IMG/VR virus record: IMGVR_UViG_2663762648_000006 | Span: 1 to 17,357 of that record | Source: a virus | Taxonomy: Duplodnaviria > Heunggongvirae > Uroviricota > Caudoviricetes | DNA length: 17,357 nt | Reading direction: 5' to 3' (one strand) | Shown here: in pieces, positions 6,830 through 7,177 of the stretch | How the letters are laid out: every line of letters starts with the position of its first letter | Position numbering within the stretch: the stretch's first letter is position 1 | Position numbers and translations under genes: made by a program | Notes under the pieces: model-generated | The model's input: the letters and a program-made list of their open reading frames with translations, nothing else | Told to the model about the DNA's origin: nothing | The model's database searches: none

Positions 6830-6904
6830 TGGAGCGGGCAGCGGGAATCGAACCCGCATCATCAGCTTGGAAGGCTGAGGTAATAGCCATTATACGATGC
6901 CCGC
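6830..6904 (-). tRNA. tRNA-Gly (anticodon UCC)
   Basis: 75-nt cloverleaf folded by hand: 7-bp acceptor stem (GCGGGCA/TGCCCGC), anticodon loop CTTCCAA, T-arm GCGGG-TTCGATT-CCCGC, encoded CCA. Confidence 0.8.
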
Positions 6905-6907
6905 ATA

Positions 6908-6983
6908 TGGTGCCGACTACCGGAATCGAACTGGTGACTTACTGATTACAAGTCAGTTGCTCTACCTACTGAGCTAAGTCGGC
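6908..6983 (-). tRNA. tRNA-Thr (anticodon UGU)
   Basis: 76-nt cloverleaf: acceptor GCCGACT/AGTCGGC, D-arm GCTC...GAGC, anticodon loop CTTGTAA, encoded CCA. The T-stem has one A-C mismatch. Confidence 0.7.
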
Positions 6984-6985
6984 AC

Positions 6986-7062
6986 TGGACCGCCACCGGG
7001 GACTCGAACCTCGCACACTCAACTTAAAGGGTTGACGCTCTTTCCTGATGAACTGGTGACGG
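6986..7062 (-). tRNA. Atypical tRNA-like gene (anticodon loop CCTTTAA, nominally UUU; possibly degenerate)
   Basis: 77 nt with encoded CCA and a T-loop TTCGAGT, but C at position 8, C at position 33 and a T-stem mismatch. It lies 1 nt downstream of the tRNA-Ile-like gene. Confidence 0.4.
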
Positions 7063-7063
7063 T

Positions 7064-7139
7064 TGGTGGCCCTTGCTGGATTTGAACCAGCGACCTGGCG
7101 ATTATGAGTCGCTCGCTCTCACCACTGAGCTAAAGGGCC
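7064..7139 (-). tRNA. ileZ: tRNA with CAU anticodon, tRNA-Ile2 (lysidine) type, ileZ-like
   Basis: 76-nt clean cloverleaf: acceptor GGCCCTT/AAGGGCC, anticodon loop CTCATAA, T-arm GCTGG-TTCAAAT-CCAGC, CCA. It closely resembles my recollection of E. coli ileX and of the tRNA carried by Stx-type phages. Confidence 0.8.
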
Positions 7140-7148
7140 GGGCGCAGG

Positions 7149-7177
7149 ATAATAACGTTACGAAATCAATGTTGCAA
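7149..7177 (-). promoter_or_regulatory. Sigma-70 promoter (pR'-like) driving the tRNA cluster
   Basis: Minus strand has TTGCAA, a 17-nt spacer, then TATTAT. The predicted start is about 7 nt upstream of the first tRNA 5' end. Confidence 0.6.

Follow-up and report, generated by a model that had tools for sequence, protein, structure and literature searches.

What four transfer RNA (tRNA) genes, one of them breaking several canonical rules, are doing between the antiterminator and holin genes of a prophage is the question raised by a locus in the virus record IMGVR_UViG_2663762648_000006 of IMG/VR (Caudoviricetes). The window that was analysed comprises positions 1 to 17,357 of that record, 17,357 nt in all. 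The original prediction described a tRNA cluster under a near-consensus promoter, placed it in a constitutive late leader transcript and allowed that the third gene, here called gene X, might be a pseudo-tRNA. The cassette is a variant of the lambdoid ileZ-argN-argO type found in Shiga toxin (Stx) phages, and this structural description is secure. The locus as a whole is probably a tRNA operon in the late region of a lambdoid E. coli prophage of the Qin/phage-21 kind, a variant of the Stx-phage cassette with X included. No paper was found that describes the cluster or contains the sequence of the anticodon arm of X.

ARAGORN calls four tRNA genes, all on the minus strand and transcribed in the following order:

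7064..7139, minus strand: tRNA-Ile2 (CAU, ileZ type), decoder of AUA; ARAGORN; Rfam 72.5 bits; identical to ileZ
6986..7062, minus strand: gene X, argN-derived, loop CCUUUAA (UUU, C33); the window allele has U4.G69, C8 and U11.G24; ARAGORN Lys(UUU)
6908..6983, minus strand: tRNA-Thr(UGU), host thrU with one change, G45A; ARAGORN, Rfam 73.0 bits, host comparison
6830..6904, minus strand: tRNA-Gly(UCC), identical to host glyT; ARAGORN, Rfam 64.9 bits, host comparison

The spacers are, in order, 1, 2 and 3 nt, and the tight packing that had been predicted, with two genes only 1 nt apart, was borne out. An encoded CCA end is present in all four genes. The Rfam tRNA model RF00005 (gathering score 29 bits) accepts the CAU, Thr and Gly genes at the scores listed. 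Gene X, third by plus-strand coordinate, is second in the order of transcription. Folding of single sequences by minimum free energy (MFE) was discarded as a test of X; the folds are silent on this gene because the good tRNAs also gave no cloverleaf.

The Stx-phage tRNAs ileZ, argN and argO had been suggested for comparison. Set against the ileZ-argN region of Stx2 phages, the promoter, CAU gene and X show ~90% identity. The ileZ-argN-argO cassettes of Stx2a_F349, Sakai Sp5 and 933W occupy the same site, after Q, pR' and tR' and before the late genes; they have the same promoter, and ileZ, which leads in both arrangements, shows 100% identity. The second gene is a homologue on the same scaffold, with C1-G72 and U73 in common. 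It differs in its anticodon loop, where the window has UUU and C33 as against UCG and U33 in argN, and in its anticodon stem, where A30-U40 stands against G30-C40. Further downstream the window has host-derived Thr(UGU) and Gly(UCC) genes in place of argO, which is an Arg(UCU) gene, and it lacks stx, a structured trailer and a terminator coming next instead. A small RNA (sRNA) of the STnc100 family (Rfam, 100-158 bits) was seen downstream of the cassette in three loci (L002 4206-4417, L131 2618-2830 and L133 2582-2754), which are Stx and other O157-type prophages; the window has no STnc100 match.

The CAU gene was rightly predicted to be of the Ile2 type: it matches Stx-phage ileZ at 76/76 positions, and PGAP annotates it as tRNA-Ile. 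Its pairs C4-G69 and C5-G68 are presumably the TilS determinants. A related gene annotated tRNA-Ile is present in 5426/5426 complete E. coli genomes. Although it lies 1-2 nt from the second gene, ileZ differs at only 0-1 positions; in this cassette a constant ileZ contrasts sharply with a neighbour that changes fast and has carried three anticodons.

The spread of these arrangements was assessed in IMG/VR, where 123 loci with an argN-type T arm were found among the matches listed; the figures are sample proportions only. The order Ile-X-Thr-Gly accounts for more than 90 of these loci, Ile-X-argO for 12, in which X occurs without Gly, and Ile-argN-argO for 7. At least 80% of the 421-nt four-gene cluster is present in 553 of the 5426 complete E. 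coli genomes (~10%), and 2022 of them contain a member of the argN/X family. When species representatives were scanned for the T-arm/acceptor motif, it was found only in E. coli and Shigella; two other hits were chance matches in unrelated metagenome-assembled genomes.

The descent of X was examined by aligning twelve second-gene alleles for covariation. The cloverleaf pairing holds in 97.8% of the cells, compared with 29-54% when the partners are slid, and three pairs change on both sides:

Pair 7-66: U-A, U.G and C-G
Pair 27-43: C-G, U.G and U-A
Pair 30-40: G-C, G.U and A-U

X accordingly has a cloverleaf with stems of 7/4/5/5 bp that is supported by covariation, and it retains G18-G19, the T-loop TTCGA and the encoded 3' CCA. 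The scaffold is seen with three anticodons, namely UCG in Stx-phage argN, UCU, and UUU with C33 in X. The UCU alleles occur in E. coli ZLWT and three IMG/VR loci, and they carry a G30.U40 intermediate. X differs from the nearest UCG allele of argN at 12/77 positions. Five of the substitutions are in stems, where all preserve or better the pairing and one is a double compensatory change (p ~0.03 under neutrality, a rough estimate), and three changes in the loop yield exactly the tRNA-Lys loop but for C33. On this alignment, X is an argN (Arg) derivative that was rewritten to a lysine anticodon, with the compensatory replacement of G30-C40 by A30-U40. Neither a U33 version nor another anticodon was found on the X anticodon arm in IMG/VR. 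The sole hit of the search for other anticodons (L126) was rejected: it is an Arg(CCU) tRNA that is unrelated and belongs to a phage rich in tRNAs.

Two side observations concern the Arg(UCU) relatives. Three IMG/VR loci (L139, L140 and L142) have a two-gene cassette, in which ileZ is followed by Arg(UCU) on the X/argN scaffold with C8, G30.U40 and A73; C8 recurs in two allele groups of the argN/X family, this one and that of the window. In E. coli ZLWT (L134, 300-560), an intact Arg(UCU) second gene stands between heavily mutated remnants of ileZ and Thr(UGU). The spacing there equals that of the window; the locus represents the Ile-X-Thr arrangement in an earlier or decayed state, with another anticodon.

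The departures of X from canonical rules that the original prediction had named, C8, C33 and a mismatch in the T-stem (A51.C63), were all read in the sequence. Among X alleles, C8 is limited to the group of the window allele, and C33 occurs in every allele with the UUU anticodon. Most X alleles carry the mismatch A51.C63, a decayed copy with A-U being an exception; among argN alleles, the mismatch occurs only in that of Stx2a_F349. It is therefore not peculiar to X, and in the family as a whole the pair 51-63 takes the states G-C, G.U, A-U and A.C.

GenBank records label the cluster tRNA-Met/Lys/Thr/Gly. The anticodon is the main identity element of lysyl-tRNA synthetase, and X has the anticodon of tRNA-Lys(UUU), U34-U35-U36, in the loop C32-C33-U34-U35-U36-A37-A38. 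The loop of host tRNA-Lys, CUUUUAA (checked; a median of six copies per genome), differs from CCUUUAA at position 33 only. However, X has C1-G72 and the discriminator U73 rather than A73, and it does not descend from a Lys gene: its scaffold is that of argN, with no lysT kinship outside the loop. Two kinds of eukaryotic tRNA are likewise without U33, the tRNA-Ser(CAG) of Candida, which has G33, and the C33 initiator tRNAs of multicellular eukaryotes (PMC5041475, PMC8887486). In these anticodon-remodelled tRNAs, as in X, one family's scaffold carries another's anticodon and U33 was lost. These cases are chromosomal, with known charging and decoding, whereas X is phage-borne and a putative tRNA.

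Whether X still works probably depends on the allele, to judge from the scores against RF00005:

Commonest X (U8, C4, C11): 66 of the 123 loci among the matches listed; 44.4 bits; tRNA-Lys in PGAP
PhiR47_1 X: 40.4 bits; tRNA-Lys in the GenBank record of the phage (not PGAP)
argN alleles: 43.0-53.6 bits; tRNA-Arg
Window X (U4.G69, C8, U11.G24): 17 of the 123 loci among the matches listed; no RF00005 hit; unannotated by PGAP
PPompW X, with a 1-nt deletion in the D-stem: no Rfam hit; unannotated

The doubt that tRNA predictors might reject the third gene proved half right for the window allele: ARAGORN calls it Lys(UUU), while RF00005 gives no hit and the best score is 18 bits to tRNA-Sec. This allele lacks the invariant U8 as well as the invariant U33. 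X could explain why a tRNA gene is called inconsistently by annotation pipelines, as tRNA-Lys or as nothing. In the complete E. coli genomes, the best X hit is the window allele in 165 records and an allele near the commonest one in 529. Decay in the window (C8) lineage is indicated by L138, a relative of the window allele in which further hits such as G18A have been added. With three extra changes including C8 and a sub-threshold score, the window allele is most likely impaired or decaying, and from its sequence the chances that it is non-functional appear evenly balanced. The commonest X is predicted to be, probably, a working tRNA-shaped RNA with a lysine anticodon, and a functional RNA is here somewhat favoured over a dead one.

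Two points weigh against this reading of X. C8 is also present in an Arg(UCU) allele that ARAGORN accepts, and it may therefore be tolerated on the scaffold rather than be a sign of decay. The ~120 copies sampled are too uniform to show purifying selection on X, whose variable columns (9%, among the matches listed) are similar to those of Thr and of the non-coding flanks. Positions 33-38 show zero variants in more than 120 copies among the matches listed, which is not significant (p ~0.35, an estimate). It has to be considered that X is dead or dying everywhere, as a drifted copy of argN in which the UUU/C33 loop is meaningless. Such a reading would account for the failure of the window allele in Rfam and its omission by PGAP, for the violation of near-universal tRNA rules by C33, C8 and A51.C63, and for the existence of other decayed alleles, and the diversity data do not contradict it, being unable to show selection. 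It is nevertheless unlikely, if a serious contender. Drift would not be expected to give five stem substitutions that all keep the pairing, nor three loop changes that produce the tRNA-Lys loop save for C33; the commonest allele scores like a bona fide argN and its near relatives are in at least 529 E. coli records; and the anticodon positions are invariant, though not significantly so.

The origin of the last two genes of the cassette is clearer. Gly(UCC) and Thr(UGU) had been called less expected at this locus, and they are indeed unusual there because they replace argO. In the host, the corresponding genes lie in the operon thrU-tyrU-glyT-thrT-tufB. The window differs from it in lacking tyrU, its 116-nt spacer and thrT, and in having Thr and Gly only 3 nt apart (TAT) behind a phage promoter within a prophage. 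Exact thrU was found in 69/105 prophage copies and exact glyT in 65 (IMG/VR, among the matches listed). Eleven prophage Gly copies among the matches listed carry the compensatory pair C6U+G66A, which argues that the Gly gene is under structural constraint. By these comparisons, Thr(UGU) and Gly(UCC) are genes captured from the host thrU-tyrU-glyT-thrT operon with deletion of tyrU, and the cassette shows a recent capture of host tRNA genes in temperate phages. The original prediction had considered that the two genes might be chromosomal sequence outside the prophage; they are host-derived, but they are located between Q and the holin gene and hence inside the prophage.

Traces of the capture may be seen in two IMG/VR loci, L020 (~8032, minus strand) and L077 (~3232, plus strand), which retain, after Ile-X-Thr, the spacer of the host and half of tyrU, from its 5' side. 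In both loci tyrU breaks at the identical base of the anticodon loop (GCAGACTG|), and two unrelated sequences lie beyond. The cut at the same base suggests a recurrent breakpoint within tyrU, which is possibly an att-like site.

What these tRNAs do for the phage may be sought in the supply of rare codons. In E. coli, the codons AUA, ACA and GGA are each read by only one tRNA, of low abundance, namely ileX/Y-type tRNA-Ile2, thrU and glyT, respectively. In 15 open reading frames (ORFs) of the window, the corresponding codons occur at 7.2 (ATA), 12.8 (ACA) and 14.7 (GGA) per 1000 codons. Codon supply is the most likely and best-supported role of the Ile2, Thr and Gly genes, because the three tRNAs are sole decoders of rare codons and the phage genes are enriched in these codons. 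This role has to be set against three points. The enrichment, ~1.5-2 times, is relative to approximate host averages. The window genes are equally rich in AGA, AGG, CGA and CGG, though the cassette lost its Arg tRNAs. Finally, supply does not explain the UUU anticodon of X, because E. coli has ~six tRNA-Lys genes per genome. The idea that Gly(UCC) and Lys(UUU) might tune the lambda-type G GGA AAG frameshift of a tail chaperone was set aside, since X is also found in the absence of Gly and the window does not extend to the tail genes.

An alternative role for X comes from phage defence. Phage tRNAs are being reinterpreted as counters to tRNA-cutting immunity, on evidence gathered in T4, T5 and similar large lytic phages. 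PARIS AriB attacks chiefly host tRNA-Lys(UUU) (PMC12409363), which is also a secondary target of P2-OLD, the effector in P2-lambda interference (PMC12445682). It may be, therefore, that the commonest X is a nuclease-proof tRNA with a lysine anticodon on an Arg scaffold, which would replace host tRNA-Lys(UUU), or act as its decoy, under attack by AriB, P2-OLD or PrrC-type nucleases. AriB requires U36-A-A-U39-C40|A41 and U16, and cleavage is lost or lowered by any one of the changes U39A, A41C and U16C (PMC12409363). X is without this motif, since it reads U36-A-A-G39-U40-U41 and C16; that is, it combines the targeted anticodon with GUU at 39-41, where the host has UCA, and with C16 for U16.

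P2-OLD amputates anticodon arms that have paired CNG at 28-30 and 40-42 plus A37 (PMC12445682), and it prefers Thr(UGU) (PMC12445682) and Gly(UCC) (bioRxiv 10.64898/2026.07.10.737580). The stem CAG/CUG of argN (UCAGC/GCUG) is that of glyT, an OLD target, and the single compensatory change from G30-C40 to A30-U40 strips both CNG motifs from X. As for PrrC, U33C abolishes the formation of N6-threonylcarbamoyladenosine at position 37 (t6A37) by E. coli TsaBCDE in vitro (PMC8887486), and PrrC is reported to need the cyclic form, ct6A37 (PMC12409363). C33 would thus block t6A37 and remove the modification that PrrC is said to require. The oddities of X, C33 and the altered stem, therefore fall on determinants that have been published for PARIS, OLD, PrrC and the t6A enzyme. 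An anti-nuclease role is plausible on these grounds, since X is without the AriB and P2-OLD motifs and C33 blocks t6A37 in vitro. The loop of X matches that of host tRNA-Lys apart from position 33, C33 and UUU are fixed in all sampled copies without a U33 version on this arm in IMG/VR, and OLD and PARIS are borne by P2 phages and P4 satellites, the natural rivals of lambdoid phages.

However, the absence of a motif is to be expected of any unrelated scaffold, and X has U73 instead of the A73 of tRNA-Lys together with the A.C mismatch in the T-stem. C33 and the loss of t6A37 should weaken decoding. X decays in several lineages, as in the window allele, the PPompW allele with the D-stem deletion and L138; the adjacent Thr and Gly copies are host-identical and hence cleavable; and in two studies the toxicity of OLD was not relieved by host Thr(UGU). 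A nuclease-proof X is for these reasons a tentative reading and would have to be called doubtful. Ten ORFs of the window were searched with PADLOC for a nuclease of the prophage itself against which X might immunise, and no hit was obtained. A close known system is the UUU tRNA of phage T5, which like X differs from the host at positions 39-41 and 16 of the AriB site. It comes from a lytic phage and is of canonical tRNA-Lys type with U33, and its resistance and rescue have been demonstrated. X, by contrast, has an Arg scaffold, C33 and U73, comes from a temperate phage and is a candidate.

One might go further and regard X as a stealth lysine decoder that arose in steps from Arg UCG through UCU to Lys UUU, in which the scaffold and A30-U40 would evade OLD and AriB and C33, by lack of t6A, would evade PrrC. 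Such a decoder is quite unlikely on present sequences. If true, X would be the first anti-nuclease tRNA to have come from anticodon remodelling and the first natural bacterial-type elongator tRNA with C33, present in ~1/8 of E. coli genomes.

The same nucleases could also have determined the choice of the whole cassette, which would then be an anti-OLD/anti-PARIS refill set, with Thr(UGU), Gly(UCC) and Lys(UUU) chosen as victims of Toprim-tRNases and not for their codons. OLD prefers Thr(UGU) and Gly(UCC) (bioRxiv 10.64898/2026.07.10.737580) and PARIS prefers Lys(UUU) and Thr(UGU), so that three of the four cassette genes fall within the union of ~seven target species (chance ~0.02, a rough estimate). 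The loss of tyrU with retention of thrU and glyT fits this choice. The lambdoid phage HK446, moreover, bears an OLD-resistant Thr(UGU) (bioRxiv 10.64898/2026.07.10.737580). Yet the anticodon arms of Thr and Gly in the window are identical to those of the host, with CNG motifs and AriB site intact, over-expressed E. coli Thr(UGU) gave no protection from OLD in two independent studies, and the decoding of rare ACA and GGA accounts for the choice equally well. A refill set is thus improbable. The narrower idea that Thr and Gly are OLD-resistant copies was rejected, since their anticodon arms equal those of the host and host Thr(UGU) gives no rescue. HK446, compared here by description, is a temperate lambdoid coliphage with a Thr(UGU) tRNA like the window (bioRxiv 10.64898/2026.07.10.737580); its tRNA rescues OLD-sensitive phages, whereas that of the window has the non-rescuing anticodon arm of the host. 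Codon supply remains the preferred role of the Ile2, Thr and Gly genes.

How the cassette is transcribed was the other claim of the original prediction, and the following signals bear on it:

7338..7366, minus strand: pR'-like late promoter, TTGCAA-17-TATATT, inferred from a promoter scan and from a position as in lambdoid pR'; overlaps the end of Q
7255..7289, minus strand: tR'-like intrinsic terminator, hairpin AAAACCCGC/GCGGGUUUU followed by a U7 tail (sequence, inverted repeat, fold)
7149..7177, minus strand: sigma-70 promoter of the tRNA operon, TTGCAA-17-TATTAT (promoter scan); a G+C-rich CCTGCGCCC precedes the first tRNA
6600..6625, minus strand: intrinsic terminator that ends the tRNA operon, GCCCGCTTTTGCGGGC followed by a T run

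The predicted TTGCAA/17 nt/TATTAT promoter immediately upstream of the tRNAs is real (7177..7149) and ends 9 nt ahead of the first tRNA gene, but the term near-consensus was generous, because 9/12 consensus positions match. Promoter sites of such quality number 7 in 1.8 kb, against 2.3 expected, and the tRNA promoter is not rare by its score alone. Both of its hexamers are invariant in 39 distinct haplotypes, and the stretch ~20-60 nt upstream is hypervariable. The corresponding region of Stx2 phages, ~90% identical, precedes ileZ there too. In the Stx2 phage of Sakai, a mapped primary transcription start between tR' and stx2 drives the tRNAs (PMC7547250). Two copies of the direct repeat GGTGATTTTT (minus-strand reading) stand at 7184-7208, a short way before the -35 hexamer and within the only hypervariable stretch of the region, and the repeat may be an UP-element-like tract with a varying copy number.

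It had been proposed that the tRNAs are part of a short, constitutive pR' leader, with tR' downstream of the cluster. A terminator is indeed found downstream, at 6625..6600, and polymerase antiterminated at pR' necessarily crosses the tRNA genes. This transcript model is nonetheless very improbable. A pR'-like promoter (7366..7338) and a strong U7-tailed hairpin (7289..7255) separate Q from the tRNA promoter, the tRNA genes possess a conserved promoter of their own, and in Stx phages, where the order is pR', tR', tRNA promoter and tRNAs, mapping by Term-seq and differential RNA sequencing placed tR' ahead of the tRNA promoter (PMC7547250). The downstream terminator is therefore not tR'-like, as had been thought, and closes the tRNA operon instead. 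Because the pR'/tR' analogue lies upstream of its own promoter, the tRNA operon is a separate transcription unit, and the transcript map is corrected to two units, of which one is the short late leader RNA and the other the tRNA operon. The pair formed by the pR'-like promoter and the terminator at 7289..7255 predicts a leader RNA of ~75 nt, which would directly follow Q within 7255-7366 on the minus strand. At the corresponding position, Stx phages make the Hfq-binding sRNA StxS (PMC7547250).

Having its own sigma-70 promoter, the tRNA operon is probably transcribed in the lysogen. Lytic growth should raise the expression of the tRNAs, because the operon sits in the path of Q-antiterminated transcription from pR'. 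The Q-modified polymerase would have to pass both terminators and the tRNA genes before reaching the holin gene at 6537, and ribonuclease P and 3' exonucleases would be expected to free the four RNAs.

The operon continues beyond tRNA-Gly into a structured region:

6626..6829, minus strand: structured 3' trailer with three long hairpins; MFE -83.1 kcal/mol, z = -5.98

The stretch from tRNA-Gly to the terminator (6596-6829, 234 nt) contains perfect inverted repeats of 14 nt and 11 nt. The 230-nt trailer is unannotated and has no match in Rfam. Together with the cluster it is present in 526/5426 E. coli genomes, which indicates that it goes with those clusters that have Thr and Gly. A role as sRNA, processing signal or stability element is conceivable. 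No ORF of at least 50 aa overlaps 6538-7252 in any frame, and the tRNA region is bounded by two phage genes:

7350..8045, minus strand: Q antiterminator gene, Pfam PF06323 Phage_antiter_Q, 305.8 bits, full length; upstream boundary
6322..6537, minus strand: phage-21-type holin S, Pfam PF04971, 121.5 bits; downstream boundary

The upstream neighbours, DUF968/YdfU, RusA and the Q antiterminator (PF06323), are those of a lambdoid late region. Downstream of the cluster follow the phage-21-type holin, a YdfR-like protein, lysozyme, Rz, an HNH endonuclease and the small and large terminase subunits. This synteny is repeated in the annotations of phage PhiR47_1 and E. coli APEC17.

Elsewhere in the window, two toxin loci were observed. 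A hok/sok-type toxin-antitoxin system lies at 10979-11303 on the minus strand, where an Rfam sok match (111.7 bits, 11129-11303) overlaps an ORF of 70 aa (10979-11191), and hokD is annotated at the syntenic position of a related prophage. At 16059-16349, on the plus strand, an ORF encodes a toxin of the ParE/RelE family (Pfam PF05016, 64 bits) and adjoins helix-turn-helix repressor-like genes. It is preceded by an ORF of 64 aa (15865-16059, plus strand) that could be the antitoxin.

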